Of a stretch of DNA of 64,000 bases, positions 15,448 to 62,512 are shown piece by piece. This DNA is from Ferruginibacter sp. (GTDB lineage Bacteria; Bacteroidota; Bacteroidia; Chitinophagales; Chitinophagaceae). Each line of letters opens with the position of its first letter. Position 1 is the stretch's first letter. The notes beneath the pieces were generated by a model, which worked only from the letters and a program-made list of their open reading frames with translations, had not been told where the DNA came from and ran no database searches. Location of the stretch: the NCBI GenBank assembly GCA_031398005.1, contig JANNMO010000013.1:29953-93952 (forward strand). The letters are read 5' to 3'. The position numbers were made by a program, and so were the translations under genes.

Positions 15448-15491
15448 CAAAGCCAAAGCCAAAGCCCCCCTAAATCCCCCCCGAAGGGGGA
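15448..15491. repeat. CAAAGC x3 microsatellite followed by a G+C-rich hairpin module
   Basis: caaagc caaagc caaagc, then CCCCCCTAAATCCCCCCCGAAGGGGGA (15465..15491). 6-bp stem TCCCCC/GGGGGA. Starts 5 nt after the priA stop. Confidence 0.75.
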
Positions 15492-20861: not shown

Positions 20862-20987
20862 TTTTCCTAAAATAAAAATGAGCGAAAAGCAAAATGGATA
20901 ATTTCACTCTTCGCCCAAAATTATTACTTTTTTTACCAGCTTATTCTCTTCATTCTTTCATCATACTTGTAATGGTACTTCTCCTTT

Positions 20988-21150
20988 CTTCTCTTTCGCT
21001 CCTTTGATCTCCCAGTCTCTTTTATCTCCTTATCTCCTTTCTTCTCTTTCTCTCCTTTGTCCTCCTAGCCTTCTTTTCTCTCCTTTAATCTCCTTTAAAC
21101 TCCTAGCTCTCCTTCACTTCTTTTTCTCCTTTAATATCCTTTATTTCCCC
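20988..21150. repeat. Polypyrimidine (CT) tract with nine CTCCTT words (AAGGAG on the minus strand)
   Basis: Read directly: nine CTCCTT between 20991 and 21132, with almost no purines on the + strand. Begins right after the ATPase stop (21151) on the minus strand. Confidence 0.85.
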
Positions 21151-22677: not shown

Positions 22678-22838
22678 ATTTTTATTTTCTAAATTTTTCT
22701 TATTTTTTTATTTTCTGCAAATTAGCCCTGAATTATTTTTGCCGAGAAGTCGGTAAGTCGTTTTTAAAAATTAAGTCGGTAAGTTTTTTGTCGATAAATC
22801 GACAAAGATTAAACAAACTTTTTTTAAATTTCTTGAAA

Positions 22839-23231: not shown

Positions 23232-23300
23232 TTATTTTTTCTTTATTAAATAATATCTTCCAAAATGCAAAGTATATCTGATGTCTCCCCCCTTTTTTTT

Positions 23301-23512
23301 TAAACGCCTTCCCGTCTTTCCGTCAAAAATAATACACGCAGAGTGTGAAAAATTTTTGCGAAGCAAATCAAACCCCCGTCTTACTTTTTCTGAAACGTCT
23401 TCCCTTCTTTCCGGCAAAATAACATTTGCGCAGCAAATCAACCCCCGTCTTACTTTTTCTTAAACGCCTTCCCGTCTTTCAGGCAAAAAAAACATTTGCG
23501 CAGCAAATAATC
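23301..23512. repeat. Tandem repeat, about 2.7 units of 69-90 bp
   Basis: Units start at 23301, 23391 and 23460. Shared words AAACGCCTTCCCGTCTTTC...CATTTGCGCAGCAAATCAACCCCCGTCTTACTTTTTCT. Unit 1 carries an extra ~21 nt. The last unit runs into the VWA stop codon. Confidence 0.85.
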
Positions 23513-32590: not shown

Positions 32591-34465
32591 ATGGCTAAAA
32601 TAGGGATAAACATTGCTACCGGCAGTTTACAGAAAGAAGAAATTATTGTAGGAATAGATTTAGGTACCACCAATAGCCTTATAGCAATTATACACCCCGA
32701 CACAAGGCAAGCAGTGGCCTTAAAAGAACATGATAGCTCTTCATTGGTGCCTTCAATTGTTTACTTCGATAAAGCAGGCAATATTTTGGTGGGCAATGAA
32801 GCAAAAGAATTTTTAATAACCTCACCGGAACGAACTATTTTTTCTGCTAAAAGATTATTGGGTAAAAATTATGATGATATAAAAGCCAATGCATCTTTTT
32901 TCTCTTACAAAATTATTGACACCGATGCCGACAAACAGGTTCAAATTAAAATAGATGACCAGTTTTATTCCCCGGTAGATTTATCTGCACTTATATTGAA
33001 AGAACTGAAAAAAAGGGCAGAGCATATTCTTAAAACACCGGTAAACAAAGCAGTAATAACCGTACCTGCTTATTTTAATGATGCACAGCGGCAGGCAACC
33101 AGAGATGCAGGAAAACTTGCAGGCTTAGATGTATTGAGAATAATAAATGAACCTACAGCAGCCAGTCTTGCTTATGGATTAGGAGCCCCCTCTAACTCCC
33201 CCACAGGGGGGAAAGAAGAAATGGTAATTGCAGTATATGATTTGGGGGGTGGCACTTTTGATGTATCTATCTTAAAATTAAACAACGGAGTTTTTGAAGT
33301 ACTATCTACCAATGGTGATACTTACCTTGGCGGCGATGATTTTGACAATGCTATTGTGCAATATTGGAAAGATGAAAAATTTTTCACAGACGAAGAATTG
33401 TTAACCAATAAATCTCTTGCGCAGGAGTTGCGGTTGAAAGCCGAGGAAGCAAAAAAGTATCTCTCTACCAACGAAAATTTTACAGCCACCATACAGCATA
33501 AAGAGATAGCCATCAATAAAACCAAGTTTAATGAACTGGTAAAACCTTTTATTGATAGAACAATTGATAGCTGCAAAAAAGCGATGAAGGATGCTGAGCT
33601 TGCAAAAAATGATATAAATGAAATTATTATGGTGGGGGGAAGTACGAGGGTTCCGCTGGTAAATGAATTGGTCAGCAATTATTTTGGTAAGCAAGTAAAT
33701 AATACCGTAAATCCAGATGAAGTGGTGGCGTTGGGTGCGGCCATACAGGCAGATATTTTAGCAGGCAATAATAAAGACGTATTGCTGTTAGATATTACAC
33801 CGTTAAGTTTAGGAATTGAAACGGCAGGAGAATTAATGGATGTATTGATTCCCCGCAATGCAAAAATACCATCCAGCGCAGCCAGAGAATATACCACACA
33901 AATAGATGCACAGGTAAACATGCGAATAAGTGTGTACCAAGGGGAAAGAGATATTGTGAAAGACAATAGATTGCTGGCCACCTTAAACCTAAAAGGAATA
34001 CCGGCAATGCCCGCAGGTATGGCCAAGGTGCAGGTAAGTTTTTTAATAAATGCCGATGGAATATTAACCGTAAAAGCAAAAGAATTAAGAAGCGGAATTG
34101 AACAAAGTATAGAAATAAAACCTCAACTAGGAATTGATGATGAAACGGTAGAAAAAATGTTGCTTGATTCAATGGCAAATGCACAAAATGATATAGCTGC
34201 AAGGGCGCTGGCAGAAGCCAGTACAGAAGGGGAACAACTATTAAAAACTACGGAACGATTCCTACAAAAAAATGCTGCACTTTTAATAAACAATGAACTG
34301 GCAGATACTGCTGCGGCCATGCAGGCATTGCAAATGGCATTGACCATGGCAGATAAAAATTTAATACAAAGCAAAACAGAAATACTCAACGATATCTCCC
34401 GCCCTTATGCAGAAAGAATTATGAACAGTGCAGTAGGAGAGGCAATGAAAGGAAAAAATATTTAG
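32591..34465 (+). CDS. Hsp70 family chaperone (HscA-like)
   Basis: [60 protein letters not shown]. 624 aa. No hscB/iscU neighbours, so hscA is not asserted. Confidence 0.85.
33186..33212. repeat. G+C-rich hairpin module lying in frame inside the Hsp70 gene
   Basis: CCCCCTCTAACTCCCCCACAGGGGGGA encodes part of [13 protein letters not shown]. Same word family as 15465..15491 and 44883..44911. Confidence 0.65.
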
Positions 34466-44708: not shown

Positions 44709-45293
44709 ATGGAAATAATAATAAGAAAAGCAGTAAAAGAAGATTGTGCAGCCATTATGAAACTGGTAAACGAACTGGCAGTGTATGAAAAAGCACCTGA
44801 TGAAGTAACCGTTACTATGGAGCATTTTATTGAAAGTGGTTTTGGAGAAAACCCGGTGTGGGAGGCATTTGTGGCAGAACAGCCTCCCCTAACCCCTCCC
44901 GAGGAGGGGGATTACCTTAGCAATGCTCTAAGCGGTAATATAAATGGAGAAAAAGAACGGGATCAATCTCCGCTGCAATCTTCTCCGTCTCCCTCCCCCC
45001 GGGGGAGGATAGGAGGGGCTGCTATCCTCGGCTTTGCACTCTACTACACACGCTACAGCACATGGAAAGGACAAAGAATGTATTTGGAAGATTTGTTGGT
45101 TACAGAAAACATGCGTGGAAAAAATATTGGTAAATTATTATTTGATGCATTAATAGATGAATGCAAACAAAAAAAATTCAGTGGACTGGTGTGGCAGGTG
45201 TTAGACTGGAATGAACCCGCTATTAATTTTTACAAAAAAATGGAAGGCGTAAAATTTGATGGGGAATGGATTAATTGTAGTATGGAATTTTAA
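44709..45293 (+). CDS. GNAT family N-acetyltransferase carrying a 45-codon in-frame repeat insertion
   Basis: GNAT blocks either side of the insert (IRKAVKEDCAAIMKLV..., LGFALYYTRYSTWKGQRMYLEDLLV, RGKNIGKLLF, WNEPAINFYKKMEG). Confidence 0.8.
   Translation: MEIIIRKAVKEDCAAIMKLVNELAVYEKAPDEVTVTMEHFIESGFGENPVWEAFVAEQPPLTPPEEGDYLSNALSGNINGEKERDQSPLQSSPSPSPRGRIGGAAILGFALYYTRYSTWKGQRMYLEDLLVTENMRGKNIGKLLFDALIDECKQKKFSGLVWQVLDWNEPAINFYKKMEGVKFDGEWINCSMEF
44883..45017. repeat. Composite G+C-rich palindromic element, 135 nt, in frame inside the GNAT gene
   Basis: Left module CCTCCCCTAACCCCTCCCGAGGAGGGGGA (44883..44911); right module CTCCCTCCCCCCGGGGGAGGATAGGAGGGG (44989..45018). Encodes PPLTPPEEGDYLSNALSGNINGEKERDQSPLQSSPSPSPRGRIGG. 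Confidence 0.7.
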
Positions 45294-56385: not shown

Positions 56386-56645
56386 GGAGCATGGGCCAAA
56401 GAAACATTTTTCAGCATTCGTTAGCCTGTTCCGAACTTGATTCGGAAGGCTATACGCTGCTGCCGCTCAAACGCAGCGGCATATGCTGCTATTCCGGCTA
56501 TGTTCAGCAAATTTTCTTTACTCAGCTTTAATTGTGCAGTTTGGTTTATGGAGAGTTTGTAATTGTTGTTTGAGGTTTTATATTATTTCCCCAACTGGGT
56601 TTTCTTTTAGTTTAAATCTTTAATAAAGCTTCGCTTAACTCTACT
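56386..56645. repeat. Intergenic paralogous element, copy A (about 260 bp), with conserved hairpin and peptide-like frame on the minus strand
   Basis: Aligns to 62230..62469 over GGAGCATG...GAAACATTTTTCAGCATT...CGCTGCTGCCGCTCAAAYGCAGCGGCAT...GCTTTAATTGTGCA...GGAGAGTTTGTA...TCTTTTA.TTTAAATC...CTTAACTCTA. Confidence 0.8.
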
Positions 56646-56666
56646 GATAACCGAAAAAGCCTTACA

Positions 56667-59421: not shown

Positions 59422-61635
59422 TTAATCAACCATTACCGCTTTTAATGAAATATATTTATCCAGCGTTTTAAAATTGTGGCCCTTTGCTTTCATTCTTTTA
59501 ATATAGTCTGGTGTAGCACCAATTGCTTTTGCACCAAGTATATTATCAAAATTGGCATCTGTAAAACCTAAGCCCTGGTATTCTTTTACCATTTCAGGCG
59601 TTACATTCATAGCTTTTAGTCCTCCAAAATCATCAGGGTTTATATTTTTAAAACCTGCGCTGCTAAAGCTTTTAATGTAGTCTGCAGTAATGCCAAGCGC
59701 CTTATAGCCAGTAATATTTTCAGGTTTTATTTTAATACCTGCATTCTTAAAACTTTTTACATAATCTGCAGTAATGCCTAGCGCCTTAAAACCAATAATA
59801 TCTGCATTGGAAATTTTAATGTAACCCACCTCTTTAAATGAATTAATATATGCCTGATCAATTCCTAATGCTTTCATTGCTATTATATCGTCATGACCAT
59901 CATCATTTTTTTCTGCGTTTTCATCAATTTTTGCCTGCTCTTCACTCAATTTGTTTTGTTGTTCGTTCAATAGGTCTTGTTGCTCATTCAGTTTATCCTG
60001 TTGTGCATTTAGCTTATTATCTAATGATCCCATATTATTCTTTGTAGCATTTTTATAATCAGCAATATATTTTCCATCAATGCCCTGTGCTTTTAAAGTT
60101 ATTATTCTATCAGGGCTTAGATTTTTATAACCGGCTTTGGTTATCTCTTCTATAAATGCTTTATCTACACCGAGTGATCTAAAAGGAACTAAATTTTCAA
60201 TATTAATTTCGGGCATTACTTGTTTTATAGATGTTATATACGCTTCATCAACATTTAGTGCAGCAAGTGGAATAATATCTTCTTTACTAATATTTTTGTA
60301 GCCATTTTGTTTAAGCATTTGTACATAGGTATTTTTTATATTCAGCATAAAAAATACAATGGCATCTTCGTTACTTTTTATATCTACACCATCTTTAAGC
60401 ATTTTTTCTTCGTATTGCTTATTGGGTATAAATTTATAATTACCCATACCTTTTGTACCTTCAAATTTTCCTGTAAATTCCAGAGTACCGGCATCTCTGG
60501 TCAAGGAAAAATTACCAGTTTTACCTACAGGCAAATCTTTTAATTCGCTTAGCAAAAAACTGTTGCCACTAAAAGAATTTTCATCGTCATCACTTTTAAA
60601 CTGAAAGTTTATTTTATCATTTTTTATAGTTGCAAACCACACTCCTTCGTTTTTCATTTCGTTGCCAATATGAATTTGCTTTTCTCCGTTGTTTTTTCCT
60701 GTTTGCTTTTGTCCGTAAACAATTGTTTCGTTAAACACACATACAAACAATACCATAAGTGGTAGTAGGAAAAAGTATTTCCAGATGGTATGCAGGTTAG
60801 ATTTTTTTGCGTTCATCATGATTAATCTTTTTTTAAGAAGTGATTGGTTATAATTAGTTGTAAGGCTTAATGGAAAATGCGGTGCAGCCACTTTTAATAA
60901 ACTCATCTGGTAACTTTCTTTTTCAACTGTATTGTGCTGTAATAAACTTTCATCGGTGTAATATTCAAGGTTGCTTTCCAGCTCTTTGCGCCATGCCCAT
61001 GCAAAAGGATTGAACCATTGAAAAATGATTACTATTTCTGCCAGCAGCAGATCTAGCGTATGCTTTTGTTCAATGTGTATTTTTTCGTGAAGCAATACTT
61101 GGTTGTATGTTTCCCAATCATATTTTTCAGGATTTATAAAAATATTATTGGCAAATGAACAAGGTGCTTTATCGCCAGTAATTTCTACAATGCGAAATTT
61201 ACCATCAATAATTACCGGGCGTGAATAAGCTTTGTATAATAAAATACATGCCTGCATTAAAAAATTAAAACCAAATAATATTACACCAAACCAATACAAA
61301 TACACAAGCCAATCCATAACCTGCTCAAAGTTTATGCGCTTATTATTCTCCAGCGGTTGCACAACATGTGTACTCACTTTTTGGTTAATGGATTGAATAA
61401 TATTTTCCTGCATGGTTGTTTCACTTACAGGTGCAACAACATTTATTTGCGCAGGAGTTTTTCTAAAAGAAAGTTGCTCAGGTATCTTTATAAGCGGCAG
61501 CGAAAATGCCAGCGCCATACAAGAAAGCAATACTATTCTATTTAAATGAAAGAAGGTTTCTTTTTGCAACAACAGTTTATAAAAAATAAAACATGCTGTA
61601 AGAATAATGGCGGCGTATAAAATATATGGTATCAT
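59422..61635 (-). CDS. BlaR1/M56 family peptidase-type signal transducer with atypical repeat-rich C-terminal domain
   Basis: Four TM helices. HExxH (LLHEKIHIEQKH). C-terminal about 300 aa built from ~24-aa repeats (KALGI.ADY(I/V)KSF..AG(F/I)K.I.P) plus a Q-rich coiled coil. 4-nt overlap with the BlaI-like gene. Confidence 0.8.
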   Translation of the reverse strand: MIPYILYAAIILTACFIFYKLLLQKETFFHLNRIVLLSCMALAFSLPLIKIPEQLSFRKTPAQINVVAPVSETTMQENIIQSINQKVSTHVVQPLENNKRINFEQVMDWLVYLYWFGVILFGFNFLMQACILLYKAYSRPVIIDGKFRIVEITGDKAPCSFANNIFINPEKYDWETYNQVLLHEKIHIEQKHTLDLLLAEIVIIFQWFNPFAWAWRKELESNLEYYTDESLLQHNTVEKESYQMSLLKVAAPHFPLSLTTNYNQSLLKKRLIMMNAKKSNLHTIWKYFFLLPLMVLFVCVFNETIVYGQKQTGKNNGEKQIHIGNEMKNEGVWFATIKNDKINFQFKSDDDENSFSGNSFLLSELKDLPVGKTGNFSLTRDAGTLEFTGKFEGTKGMGNYKFIPNKQYEEKMLKDGVDIKSNEDAIVFFMLNIKNTYVQMLKQNGYKNISKEDIIPLAALNVDEAYITSIKQVMPEINIENLVPFRSLGVDKAFIEEITKAGYKNLSPDRIITLKAQGIDGKYIADYKNATKNNMGSLDNKLNAQQDKLNEQQDLLNEQQNKLSEEQAKIDENAEKNDDGHDDIIAMKALGIDQAYINSFKEVGYIKISNADIIGFKALGITADYVKSFKNAGIKIKPENITGYKALGITADYIKSFSSAGFKNINPDDFGGLKAMNVTPEMVKEYQGLGFTDANFDNILGAKAIGATPDYIKRMKAKGHNFKTLDKYISLKAVMVD

Positions 61636-62229: not shown

Positions 62230-62469
62230 GGAGCATGAGCTGGAGAAACATTTTTCAGCATTTGTTTCGGGCTATTCGCTGCTGCCGCTCAAATGCAGCG
62301 GCATTCGCTGCTATCCCGGCTATGCTCAGCAGATTTTCTTTAATGGGCTTTAATTGTGCAACAGGTTTTAAGGAGAGTTTGTATTTTTTGTTTGTAATTT
62401 TTTTATTGTTTGTCGATATAAAGTCTCTCTTTTATTTTAAATCCGTAGAGGCGCTTCTCTTAACTCTAA
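62230..62469. repeat. Intergenic paralogous element, copy B (about 240 bp)
   Basis: See copy A. It lacks the extra 22-nt TTCCGAA/TTCGGAA hairpin present in copy A. Lies in the divergent spacer between the BlaI-like gene and ORF 62513. Confidence 0.8.
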
Positions 62470-62512
62470 GGATAGATAAAGTACATTTGAAACCAATATT
62501 TAAGTACATCAC

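Follow-up and report, generated by a model that had tools for sequence, protein, structure and literature searches.

An in-frame G+C-rich insert in a GNAT acetyltransferase gene of Ferruginibacter sp., bounded by inverted repeats of potential triplex architecture

Results

A GNAT gene interrupted in frame

The window, i.e. the whole stretch of 64,000 nucleotides analysed here, carries an ORF (44709..45293, + strand) whose reading frame is uninterrupted along its whole length and which encodes 194 aa, against 150 aa for the orthologues without insert. The features of the locus and the related ones elsewhere in the window are as follows.

44709..45293, + strand: host gene, coding for a GNAT N-acetyltransferase of 194 aa that resembles SSAT (spermidine/spermine acetyltransferase) (ORF list, Pfam, PDB match, syntenic orthologues)
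44883..45014, + strand: inserted block, net 132 nt or 44 codons (DNA alignment against the empty sites L002 and L003)
44881..44911, - strand (G-rich strand): left triplex-type module (pattern search, hairpin scan, triplex-motif finder)
44912..44991, + strand: AT-richer centre of the insert (fold; codon-position identities across 7 orthologous copies)
44992..45020, + strand (G-rich strand): right triplex-type module, in opposite orientation to the left module (pattern search, hairpin scan, finder)
15463..15491, - strand: solo module of the same family, intergenic, AGCCCCCCT-AAA-TCCCCC-CCGAA-GGGGGA
33184..33212, - strand: solo module of the same family, in frame in HscA, AGCCCCCT-CTAAC-TCCCCC-ACAG-GGGGGA
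32591..34465, + strand: HscA (Fe-S assembly Hsp70), second host in the window with an in-frame module (homologue names)

The top PDB match of the GNAT protein is human diamine acetyltransferase 1 (E=2.7e-26). The insert breaks the alignment to SSAT1 into two parts (query residues 3-60 and 103-179), and the Acetyltransf_1 domain of Pfam is detected from residue 105 onward only. The gene lies in a DinB-GNAT-CarboxypepD_reg synteny common to the homologues P0010, P0012 and P0016. In the AlphaFold2 model the core has a pLDDT >90 and the insert falls between beta strands 52-58 and 105-117, residues 63-102 having a pLDDT <50. This agrees with the strand-connecting loop proposed in a first-pass annotation of the locus; the 44 inserted residues are predicted to form a floppy, disordered loop of a beta-hairpin in the SSAT-like protein.

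The same annotation had described a G+C-rich insert of 135 nt (45 codons) at 44883..45017. The sequence is as described, in frame and free of stops within an open ORF, and its GC content is 0.57-0.65 at either end vs ~0.3-0.4 elsewhere in the gene. The length has to be corrected, the net difference from the empty orthologues being 132 nt, i.e. 44 codons. In frame, 44883..45014 reads PPLTPPEEGDYLSNALSGNINGEKERDQSPLQSSPSPSPRGRIG(G); EQPPLTPPEEGDYLSNALSGNINGEK is one of the peptides that its translation would yield. The right module repeats the left one in inverted orientation, so that the insert ends form terminal inverted repeats of ~30 nt (AGCCTCCCCTAAC... and ...GGATAGGAGGGGCT). The frame is open because a stop occurs in only one of the three frames per orientation (TAA; TAG on the other strand). 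The predicted fold is a long imperfect hairpin over the whole block (-63.3 kcal/mol, z=-3.4; ViennaRNA folds take no account of triplexes), and the centre has small inverted repeats of its own, GATTACC..GGTAAT and GGAGAA..TTCTCC.

Four modules in the window

On the + strand the left module is composed of AG, CCTCCCC (44883-89, the mirror segment), TAA (44890-92), CCCCTCC (44893-99), a CGA loop (44900-02), GGAGGGG (44903-09) and GA. Its G-rich (-) strand reads CCCCTCC-TCG-GGAGGGG-TTA-GGGGAGG, and it fits the extended consensus A-R-C-C-W-CCCCTAAYCCCTCC-NNN-GGAGGGG-R-A drawn from 110 genome copies. The right module is composed of CCTCCCC (44992-98), a CCG loop, GGGGAGG (45002-08), ATA (45009-11), GGAGGGG (45012-18) and CT. 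Its end, GGATAGGAGGGG, shows no difference among 7/7 type-A orthologues, six of which also keep the next CT. An oligonucleotide for the G-rich strand of a module would be, e.g., CCCCTCCTCGGGAGGGGTTAGGGGAGG; a second one of module type is 5'-CCTCCCCCCGGGGGAGGATAGGAGGGG-3'.

The pattern CCCCTNNNNNCCCCNNNNNNGGGG, with ≤1 mismatch, has four matches only in the window, at 15466(+), 33187(+), 44886(+) and 44995-45018(-), where 100 dinucleotide shuffles give an expectation of 0. Perfect C-rich hairpins of ≥6 bp are found in the 64 kb at the same four module sites and at no others. A finder of three-segment triplex motifs (our own program, with ITxF-type rules and perfect stems ≥6 nt) also returned exactly these four sites, and 0 in 50 shuffles. 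The recurrence of the module at 15466 and in an Hsp70 gene, noted earlier, is thus confirmed. The hairpins seen in the first-pass annotation are present too, but a plain hairpin is not an adequate description: the modules are three-segment repeats, mirror plus inverted.

The solo module at 15463..15491 lies between convergent genes, 22 nt past the stop of an 833-aa + strand ORF that we take, by eye, to be PriA-like. The other solo module is in the Hsp70 gene, whose close homologues are annotated "Fe-S protein assembly chaperone HscA [Ferruginibacter sp.]"; two of the three module loci in the window are therefore inside ORFs. In HscA the module encodes a 16-residue loop, +7 aa relative to E. 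coli DnaK. The insert is absent from 79 of the 112 parsed HscA orthologues, which have a 10-residue loop, and 21 have the 16-residue loop; a PSNSP-like reading is present in 24 of the 33 longer loops. Aligned at the DNA level with the empty locus of P0124, the filled gene is longer by a net 18 nt.

Filled and empty alleles of the GNAT loop

Close homologues of the GNAT protein lack the insert, as had been expected: the loop has 9 residues in 54 of the top 120, including the syntenic P0010, P0012 and P0016; in 63 an insert of +4 to +62 aa is found at this site. Over half of these 120 orthologues, and ~20/55 more distant ones, have the loop filled by modules, which are of several subtypes and lie in either orientation. 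We retrieved 80 GNAT loci by tblastn, for which an intact ORF was no precondition. Every parsed insert in these loci is in frame, and the recovered variants, of many lengths, are all free of stops. Five of the six perfect motifs in the 589 kb surrounding the 80 orthologues are in or adjoining the GNAT gene.

The empty L002 and L003 and the filled L005, L007 and L008 have the same synteny, and the flanks of L005 and L002 are 97.4% identical. The insert is thus polymorphic between near-identical alleles. Positions at which both filled alleles depart from the empty one are clustered within ~50 nt of the insert; away from it, L005 sorts with the empty L002. In a NJ tree of the GNAT flanks (~139 residues) filled and empty states interleave. 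The clustering of the separating sites beside the insert points to an exchange of filled and empty states by homologous recombination. Target-site duplications were sought in the filled/empty pairs of GNAT and HscA and none was found; a few host bases are replaced, and neither alignment gives a clean insert boundary. In L005 a 21-nt hairpin is nested within the left module.

Distribution of the module family

An exact 24-nt core of the module is present in at least 120 genome stretches, and its copies share five more conserved flanking positions, outside the query. The core occurs in many Bacteroidota and Cyanobacteria and is scattered in other phyla, where the matches are mostly single MAGs, possibly mis-binned. 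Among the 141 sampled copies, 17 (~12%) are inside long ORFs; the genes concerned include those for ValRS, LeuRS, MCM-MeaB, a histidine kinase and an M14 peptidase. About three quarters of the sampled modules are solo, i.e. a partner is absent within 220 nt. Where modules are paired, their spacers bear no relation from locus to locus, and the partners of TAA-type units have the loops CTT, CAG, CCG, TCA and similar. In Okeania, module copies are embedded in (AGGAGAC)n arrays.

The modules are constrained, the centre is not

Seven related sequences, with 22 third positions, were compared for conservation. Third codon positions in the modules are 0.82 identical vs 0.64 for third positions in the flanks (P about 4e-4), and in the insert centre first, second and third codon positions of the 7 orthologous copies alike have a mean pairwise identity of 0.65-0.66. 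A compensatory C-G to G-C change is seen in L132, in the right stem. Conserved third positions beside a neutral centre argue that the constraint acts on the nucleic acid and not on the protein: the modules appear constrained as nucleic acid, the centre of the insert apparently drifting neutrally.

Three-segment architecture and comparison with BoxC/PIT/TMECO

Read along their G-rich strand, the modules have a pyrimidine arm and a purine arm, joined by a loop of 3-5 nt, and after a further loop of 3 nt the purine arm in mirror copy. The ITxF definition of class II, G/C-rich (Holder et al. 2015), consists of three consecutive blocks with stems of 6-15 nt and loops of 1-6 nt, the third block being an antiparallel copy of the purine arm that gives the triads G*G-C and A*A-T or T*A-T. 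All four window modules have these three blocks. In 23 of 31 modules the third segment agrees fully with the purine-motif rule, and in 29/31 it does so with ≤1 mismatch; among arms independent of the search pattern full agreement is found in 13/19 cases vs 2/19 in the reversed control. Since partner modules were selected for having a hairpin with a G-rich tail, the A/T position of the third segment is the only independent observation in this covariation. At that position (-1) the 110 genome copies have 74 T, 32 A, 4 C and no G, so that on the G-rich strand the allowed triads A*A-T and T*A-T would form. A pyrimidine-motif triplex (RNA-capable) on the C-rich strand was also considered, and the frequent A at -1 suits the purine motif better; a purine motif on the G-rich strand speaks for DNA rather than RNA.

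From these sequence rules we infer that the modules belong to the intrastrand-triplex type of BoxC/PIT/TMECO, in which they would be able to form a triplex. The literature on these repeats includes work by Bachellier in the 1990s and by Hoyne and Maher in 2000. Modules and BoxC/PIT/TMECO have in common the succession of segments on the G-rich strand (a C-rich and a G-rich arm with 3-6 nt of loop between them, then a loop of 3 nt and the mirrored G-rich arm), the second loop TTA (type A modules), A or T opposite the A-T pair, and stems more conserved than loops. Both occur solo or as inverted pairs of a TTA-type and a non-TTA unit; the window pair is of this kind, with TTA in the left unit and ATA in the right. 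Both are unlinked to known transposons (for E. coli TMECO, PMC4666352) and polymorphic, filled or empty, among close strains.

Disparities nevertheless appear. The TMECO stem is the 9-nt CCCTCNCCC, whereas the stems of the window modules have 6-7 nt (CCCCTCC, TCCCCC), a range of short stem lengths at which Holder et al. 2015 report many chance matches (PMC4666352). The window modules fail the strict TMECO/BoxC pattern CCCTCNCCC N3-6 GGGNGAGGG N3 GGGNGAGGG. Thus, with shorter stems of other sequence, they are relatives of TMECO in architecture and not members of it. Versions close to TMECO are found in some GNAT orthologues (L191, L142, the "GEGRGEV" inserts). The hosts of TMECO are Proteobacteria, those of the modules Bacteroidota and Cyanobacteria; paired modules, unlike TMECO, may be ~80 nt apart. 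TMECO, which occurs as inverted pairs, is "always located intergenically" in E. coli (PMC4666352), whereas modules are in frame in genes at two of the three window loci and in ~12% of the sampled copies. Such intragenic siting of a BoxC-type repeat is not reported for BoxC. Triplex folding of TMECO was demonstrated in vitro, for oligonucleotides with 9-nt stems only; a G4 was ruled out by NMR, and footprinting in vivo did not reveal a stable triplex (Holder et al. 2015, PMC4666352).

Discussion

We consider it probable (roughly 0.78) that the insert is made of inverted three-segment G+C-rich repeats, with the potential triplex architecture of BoxC/PIT/TMECO, around a neutral spacer of ~80 nt. 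For in-frame occupancy of genes by this motif in Bacteroidota we found, in keeping with the first-pass annotation, no description in the literature searched: queries on REPs or palindromic elements residing in frame in this phylum gave nothing relevant, and full-text queries with the motif strings themselves gave papers on G-quadruplex and i-motif oligonucleotides only. Repeats of this kind have, however, been described in E. coli and cyanobacteria (PMC4666352), which makes the repeat as such less new than the first-pass annotation supposed.

The modules might instead be REPs, their pair a REPIN copied by RAYT/TnpA_REP and the GNAT insert an intragenic REPIN, which we regard as unlikely. REP/BIME/REPIN elements do resemble the modules in being small hairpins rich in G+C that carry a conserved 5' leader, occur solo or as inverted dimers, lack target duplications and sometimes reside in frame in genes. 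In-frame intragenic REPs are documented in several phyla (Di Nocera et al. 2013, PMC3733652; Quentin et al. 2018, PMC6006769), including REPs of RAYT subclass 2.4 in frame within genes and inside the subclass 2.4 genes of Cyanobacteria and Bacteroidetes (PMC6006769), and the distribution of the modules, centred on the same two groups, resembles that of this subclass. But the GT[AG]G or CGTC tag is absent from the foot of the hairpin, the leader being ARCCWCCCC-TAA, and CCCCTCC, GGAGGGG and CCCCTAA have unrelated matches only in the listed RAYT-associated REPs (Quentin et al. supplement). A motif scan of the six frames of the window and of ~0.95 Mb of module-bearing loci gave no HuH-Y1/RAYT ORF; RAYTs are single-copy, however, and one may lie elsewhere in the genome. 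The REP reading also leaves unexplained the mirrored third segment, which covaries with the stem.

It is similarly doubtful that the loop modules are selected for a nucleic-acid function of the host gene or region, e.g. a programmed pause, a recombination hot spot making alleles of different loop length, or an mRNA-level element, and are not merely tolerated parasites. Conservation at the nucleotide level, third codon positions included, beside a neutral centre would fit such a function, as would the frequent occupation of the GNAT loop and the concentration of perfect motifs in or next to this gene. However, the same modules turn up in other phyla and at unrelated positions, genic as well as intergenic, empty alleles occur in many lineages, and retention may merely mean that precise deletion is hard. 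Earlier tests of PIT/TMECO found no promoter or terminator activity and no effect in vivo (PMC4666352).

A third alternative, less likely still, is that the 132-nt block is a MITE, i.e. an IS deletion derivative moved in trans by a DDE transposase through its terminal inverted repeats. The inverted repeats of ~30 nt, the length (<300 nt), the long-hairpin fold and the presence or absence among close relatives are those of a MITE, but there is a target-site duplication at neither tested site, most modules are solo, and the spacers of paired modules are unrelated between loci. No IS with such ends was seen, and TMECO of E. coli is likewise without a transposon link.

The segment is hardly a native, lineage-specific low-complexity loop expanded in place and unconnected to repeats: it is P/S/G-rich, disordered and variable in length among orthologues, and the loop of human SSAT is slightly longer at this position too, but the 30-nt modules recur at unrelated loci of the window and, identical in every base, in other phyla and genera, and a single block separates filled from empty alleles. 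Fungal mitochondrial GC clusters and double-hairpin elements are G+C-rich hairpins that invade AT-rich genomes, coding regions included; they are organellar, unrelated in sequence to the modules, and some are bypassed in translation. That our insert is absent from the protein, being cut out of the mRNA or skipped in translation like the yeast mitochondrial byp elements, is very improbable: a structured G+C-rich insert in an AT-rich gene has a superficial likeness to them, but all recovered variants are in frame and stop-free, including those at the loci found by tblastn, no intron-like features were found at the insert, and an Rfam scan of the GNAT gene at a permissive threshold gave a best E-value of 0.65, far under gathering scores.

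Two other systems deserve comparison. The SDR of Nostocaceae, attributed to Elhai et al. 2008 (Genome Res 18:1484), are reportedly dispersed hairpin units of 21-27 nt, embedded in tandem heptamer repeats and nested within their own copies. By this description they are like the modules in their heptamer arrays (Okeania) and nesting (L005); SDR are reported as limited to Nostocaceae, whereas the module family is mainly in Bacteroidota. The SDR of Nostocaceae are mentioned in PMC5861425. The analogy with Rickettsia palindromic elements drawn in the first-pass annotation is apt for the behaviour of the insert. RPEs (Ogata et al. 2000, 2002; cited in PMC10969869) are palindromes of ~100-150 nt in frame in unrelated housekeeping genes; they share with the insert a fold-compatible position, an added peptide segment and presence or absence among orthologues. 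They differ from it in lineage (the host here is Chitinophagaceae-like) and sequence and are not G+C-rich modules of triplex type; the conserved and mobile unit here is the module of ~30 nt, often solo, and not the whole 135 nt.

Taking the triplex-type repeat as the preferred reading, the insert would have entered the gene as DNA of a selfish or parasitic kind, causing no duplication of the target and replacing a few bases. It would be translated and tolerated as a P/S/G/E-rich loop, most likely neutral for the enzyme. What is conserved would be a single-stranded DNA structure and not a peptide, namely a hairpin or a purine-motif triplex that may form transiently during replication or repair. 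For its copying we think a hairpin-recognising single-strand DNA enzyme, or template switching in replication or repair, likelier than a DDE transposase; in the ~0.95 Mb of module-bearing loci no transposase came up, RAYT-like or other, and no module was seen to move. By analogy with TMECO, the insert is likely a site of polymerase pausing and local DNA instability.

A wider proposal goes well beyond this reading, and we hold it to be speculative and rather unlikely: the modules would be a cross-phylum family residing in coding loops of housekeeping genes (GNAT, HscA, ValRS, LeuRS), selected for a single-stranded DNA structure and copied by a homing enzyme. If true, ORFs would embed functional DNA elements, e.g. 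programmed pause sites of replication or repair, or recombination hot spots generating loop alleles, and the copying enzyme would home to existing copies.

To our knowledge BoxC/PIT/TMECO have been familiar for ~30 years with their function and means of spread still without explanation. Strictly intergenic in E. coli, they give scant leverage on either question. A relative in frame in conserved genes provides natural pairs of filled and empty alleles with codon structure, in which one can tell selection on the protein apart from constraint on the nucleic acid. The three-way covariation of stem, stem and mirror, with A/T opposite A-T, is comparative evidence for the purine-motif triplex fold, the earlier support for which was mainly in vitro and from one sequence. 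Such inserts also inflate and fragment protein families in the annotation of Bacteroidota and cyanobacteria: P/S/G/E-rich loops like "PSEGG", "GRIGGA" and "GEGRGEV" turn up in aminoacyl-tRNA synthetases, chaperones and others. Finally, they flag permissive loops, at which proteins tolerate 6-60 added residues.

The inserted block of the GNAT gene

The ORF 44709..45293 (+) contains 194 codons without a stop, and its GNAT domain is recognised by Pfam only from residue 105 on. The closest solved structure, human diamine acetyltransferase 1 (SSAT1, E=2.7e-26), matches in two pieces (query residues 3-60 and 103-179), leaving ~42 residues unmatched versus six in SSAT1. GC reaches 0.57-0.65 at both ends of this unmatched segment, against 0.3-0.4 in the remaining gene. 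The pattern CCCCT-N5-CCCC-N6-GGGG (at most one mismatch) occurs at four sites of the window and never in 100 shuffles; the same sites are the only perfect C-rich hairpins of at least 6 bp in the 64 kb:

15463..15491, match at 15466 (+): intergenic module, 22 nt past a stop codon, between convergent genes
33184..33212, match at 33187 (+): module within the Hsp70 gene 32591..34465, which is HscA
44881..44911, match at 44886 (+): left module of the GNAT insert
44992..45020, match at 44995-45018 (-): right module of the GNAT insert

As the minus-strand match shows, the two ends of the insert are inverted copies of one another. The first-pass annotation had described a G+C-rich palindromic insert in this ORF, whose left module belongs to a word family also present in a spacer and in the Hsp70 gene; this observation is confirmed. 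The whole block folds into a single long imperfect hairpin (-63.3 kcal/mol, z=-3.4).

Among the 120 best GNAT homologues, 54 have a 9-residue loop (AEESGVVRG, AKENGIVKG or similar) and 63 carry 13-71 residues at exactly the insert position. Orthology was established by synteny (DinB-family gene, GNAT, CarboxypepD_reg gene): loci L002 and L003 are empty (without insert), L001, L005, L007 and L008 filled. The extra residues are thus indeed absent from the short-loop homologues and the empty loci. Aligning the DNA shows a net gain of 132 nt (44883..45014) without target-site duplication; ~six host bases appear to have been replaced.

In an AlphaFold2 model built with 40 homologues as input the core is confident (115 residues at pLDDT 90 or above), and residues 63-102, between strands 52-58 and 105-117, are below 50. 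The insert is thus predicted to be a disordered excursion from a beta-hairpin turn, and in this model it occupies the strand-connecting loop proposed earlier.

The module-bearing loop of HscA is 16 residues long. This loop has 10 residues (LGLKKDEQKT or similar) in 79 of 112 parsed orthologues and 12-23 in the other 33, 24 of which show a PSNSP-like reading, typically (T/A)PSNSPEGGG. Relative to the 92%-identical empty allele of protein P0124 the net gain is 18 nt, again without duplication in the DNA alignment.

The window also contains other repeats. An unrelated local cluster at 22729-22770 and 23280-23491 consists of three direct copies of a ~52-nt unit (AACCCCCGTCTTACTTTTTCTGAAACGYCTTCCCKTCTTTC.GGCAAAA), spaced by 69-91 nt, and an inverted arm ~520 nt upstream. 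Two periodic repeats probably encode, on the - strand, an Ala/Lys-rich tandem repeat (1310-1441, overlapping 15/18-nt periods, GCTGCTTTTTTTGCAGGAGC...) and a Glu/Lys-rich repeat (20980-21146, pyrimidine-rich 18-nt period, TCTCCTTTCTTCTCTTTC...); the latter, a homopyrimidine tract, has some H-DNA potential itself. Segments 56386-56649 and 62230-62474 (~260 nt, 5.8 kb apart, 77-86% identity) are probably paralogous gene ends; between them 59646-59813 holds a tandem 84-nt repeat (74% identity).

Three-segment architecture of the modules

In every copy the C-run upstream of the hairpin mirrors its pyrimidine arm, so the module has three segments and not two. The mirror pairs are:

CCTCCCC-TAA-CCCCTCC
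CCCCTCC-TAT-CCTCCCC
CCCCCT-CTAAC-TCCCCC
CCCCCTC-..-CTCCCCC
CCTCTCCC-..-CCCTCTCC

Along the G-rich strand, the pyrimidine arm and a loop are followed by the purine arm, a 3-nt loop and, last, an antiparallel copy of the purine arm. By the purine-motif rule (G opposite G-C; A or T opposite A-T), 23 of 31 modules have a perfect third segment and 29 have at most one mismatch. For asymmetric arms differing from the searched sequence, 13/19 are perfect versus 2/19 with reversed arms as control. An A at position -1 (32 of 110 copies among the matches listed) would give a T*A-T triad, allowed under the purine motif, whereas a pyrimidine-motif triplex would have a mismatch there. Applied to the window, a finder using these three-segment rules picks out the four modules and no other site; 50 shuffles give no match. 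The hairpins first annotated are present; they are not plain hairpins but short relatives of BoxC/PIT/TMECO-type motifs.

TMECO, the E. coli BoxC/PIT intrastrand triplex motif, follows CCCTCNCCC-N3-6-GGGNGAGGG-N3-GGGNGAGGG, with 3,610 copies in 262 proteobacterial genomes (Holder et al. 2015, PMC4666352). Its stems are better conserved than its loops, the second loop defines types A (TTA) and B (CCG), and inverted pairs always join one unit of each. It is always intergenic, without association to transposons, phages or plasmids, and without promoter or terminator activity. In vitro it forms a very stable intrastrand triplex (CD, NMR, Tm 70-82 C); a stable triplex was not detected in vivo. That treatment does not include Bacteroidetes, and reports G/C-rich triplex motifs as very abundant in Microcystis, Anabaena and Nostoc (PMC4666352). 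In common with TMECO, the window modules have this segment order, a TTA second loop (left module) and an inverted pair in which one unit is of TTA type and the other is not (ATA in the window insert; CTT, CAG or CCG elsewhere). With stems 6-7 nt long and of different sequence they do not fit the TMECO pattern, and in contrast to TMECO the family is not restricted to intergenic DNA. Some GNAT orthologues carry near-TMECO versions (L191, L142), with inserts coding for ...SPSPRSGEGRGEV.

Spread of the module family

We searched 596 Gb for the exact core CCCCTAAYCCCTCC-NNN-GGAGGGG, for which we estimate ~1 chance occurrence under uniform base composition. It is present in at least 120 genome stretches, and the exact 24-nt core also in 32 IMG/VR (viral-classed) contig stretches (L214-L245). 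Bacteroidota are frequent among the matches listed, with isolates (including Marinilabilia salmonicolor, Galbibacter, Confluentibacter citreus and Neotamlana nanhaiensis) and MAGs (among them Prevotella, Bacteroidaceae, Prolixibacteraceae, Flavobacteriaceae, Chitinophagales, Tannerella). These matches also include several filamentous cyanobacteria (Okeania, Dapis, Microcoleaceae) and single MAGs labelled Planctomycetaceae (many copies), Dialister, Clostridiales, Caldilineales and Verrucomicrobia.

Conservation in the 110 non-redundant copies of the matches listed extends to five positions beyond the query: A at -5, C at -3 (109/110) and -2 (105/110), T/A at -1, and R-A after the hairpin. The window copy agrees with all of them. 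The hairpin loop varies freely in the copies listed (AAA, GAA, GGT, CAA, others). For about one quarter of these copies an inverted partner lies no more than 220 nt away; the remainder are apparently solo.

Well inside long ORFs lie 17 of the 141 copies listed. Pfam identifies among the hosts valyl- and leucyl-tRNA synthetases, a fused methylmalonyl-CoA mutase/MeaB, a histidine kinase, a radical-SAM protein, an M14 peptidase and others. In-ORF modules are read only in the two stop-free frames of each orientation (SPNPS.GG or PPLTPP.EG; SPPSEGLGEA or PSLGGVRGG), the pattern expected from purifying selection acting on random insertions. In two orthologous Prolixibacteraceae genes (L043:2596, L047:7066) the module lies at the 3' end, where its TAA linker may be the stop codon (...LE(R/N)(S/G)LP*); modules may sometimes donate a new C-terminus and stop to the host gene.

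In Okeania spp. (L038, L044, L102, L105, L117) the module (loop GGT, leader ACCCA) sits within tandem heptamers, e.g. (AGGAGAC)n; a similar embedding is reportedly known for the SDR elements of Nostocaceae. The Planctomycetaceae MAG Nm470_bin17 (L012, L015, L018, L024, L049, L086, others) contains dozens of copies of a larger repeat bounded by the 24-nt core on one side and by the partner CCCCTCC..GGAGGGGTCAGGGGTGG on the other, and enclosing 1-5 tandem units AATAAGAAGAYGCCTCCGARRGAGGSG. To judge from its conserved flanks, AACCTACAACGAAAAACCGCCTTTAACTCCTCCGAGACCA and ..CTCCTACAGGTTAGCGAAAAGGTCT, this repeat may be a composite element specific to the lineage.

The module arms contain CCUCC (anti-Shine-Dalgarno core) and GGAGG (Shine-Dalgarno), e.g. 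at 44883-44909 of the window. Bacteroidota and Cyanobacteria are the phyla using Shine-Dalgarno pairing least. We speculate that this weak use, in the two phyla where the family is commonest, might explain the tolerance of in-ORF GGAGG.

Evolution of the insert

Mean pairwise identity among seven orthologous "type A" copies (window, L005, L007, L130, L131, L132, L133)
Flanking gene, codon positions 1 and 2: 0.93
Flanking gene, codon position 3: 0.64
Insert centre, each of the three codon positions: 0.65-0.66
Modules overall: 0.85-0.88
Modules, codon position 3: 0.82

The uniform identity of the centre indicates no protein-level constraint beyond an open frame. At third positions the modules exceed the flanks (P ~4e-4, by resampling) and are therefore constrained as nucleic acid. 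The right stem of L132 shows a compensatory C-G to G-C change.

The otherwise 96%-identical insert of L005 (orthologue P0002) carries in its left module (L005:570-610, aligned to window 44892/44893) a nested 21-nt unit, CTCCCGCAAAAACGGGACAGG(C), with the hairpin TCCCG-CAAAAA-CGGGA. This unit lengthens the protein by SRKNGTG and is possibly another small mobile hairpin of a different kind. Nested additions in L133 and L008 duplicate GGATAGG.GGGG tails.

Filled and empty GNAT states interleave among close relatives. The flanks of filled L005 and empty L002 are 97.4% identical, each being more distant from the window. Positions that set both filled alleles apart from the empty one are concentrated within ~50 nt of the insert; farther away, L005 clusters with L002. 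The simplest reading is homologous recombination of a short patch that brings or removes the insert. Local mutagenesis near the module may contribute, by analogy with TMECO, near which variability among E. coli strains is significantly raised (PMC4666352).

In 80 further GNAT loci (tblastn) all parsable loops are in frame, many with GC-rich hairpins whose arms differ yet remain complementary. Perfect motifs are rare elsewhere in these contigs, 5/6 being in or adjoining the GNAT gene. Either such elements persist for long in the GNAT loop, or they insert there preferentially.

Mechanism and significance

The comparisons show insertion into a permissive loop, filtering for frame and constraint on the modules at the nucleotide level, and point to recombination as the means of spread or loss. 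The conserved property would be a single-stranded DNA fold, hairpin or purine-motif triplex; DNA is preferred here because RNA does not form purine-motif triplexes (PMC4666352). Neither the GNAT nor the HscA insertion shows target duplication, the module-bearing loci scanned have no transposase near the modules, and no Rfam family matches the insert. For copying of the insert we rank, with low confidence, a single-strand-DNA, hairpin-directed process above a DDE-type MITE mechanism. The insert is unlikely to have a role in the host enzyme. The modules may have a function at the DNA level.

In-frame palindromic inserts are already known as a general phenomenon. In-frame residence in genes is well documented for Rickettsia palindromic elements (work cited in PMC10969869); GTAG- and CGTC-tagged REPs lie in frame within uvrA, dnaE and other genes (PMC3733652), and RAYT (REP-associated tyrosine transposase) genes of subclass 2.4 in Cyanobacteria and Bacteroidetes contain REPs (PMC6006769). 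Unlike REPs, the modules have no GT[AG]G tag, and they are absent from the REPs listed in PMC6006769.

Overall the first-pass observation and interpretation hold, with the modules recast as triplex-motif relatives. As short BoxC/PIT/TMECO relatives they belong to a kind of repeat already known. In the literature searched, three features appear undescribed: the family with 7-nt stems, how widely it occurs in Bacteroidota and cyanobacteria, and how often it resides in frame within conserved genes.
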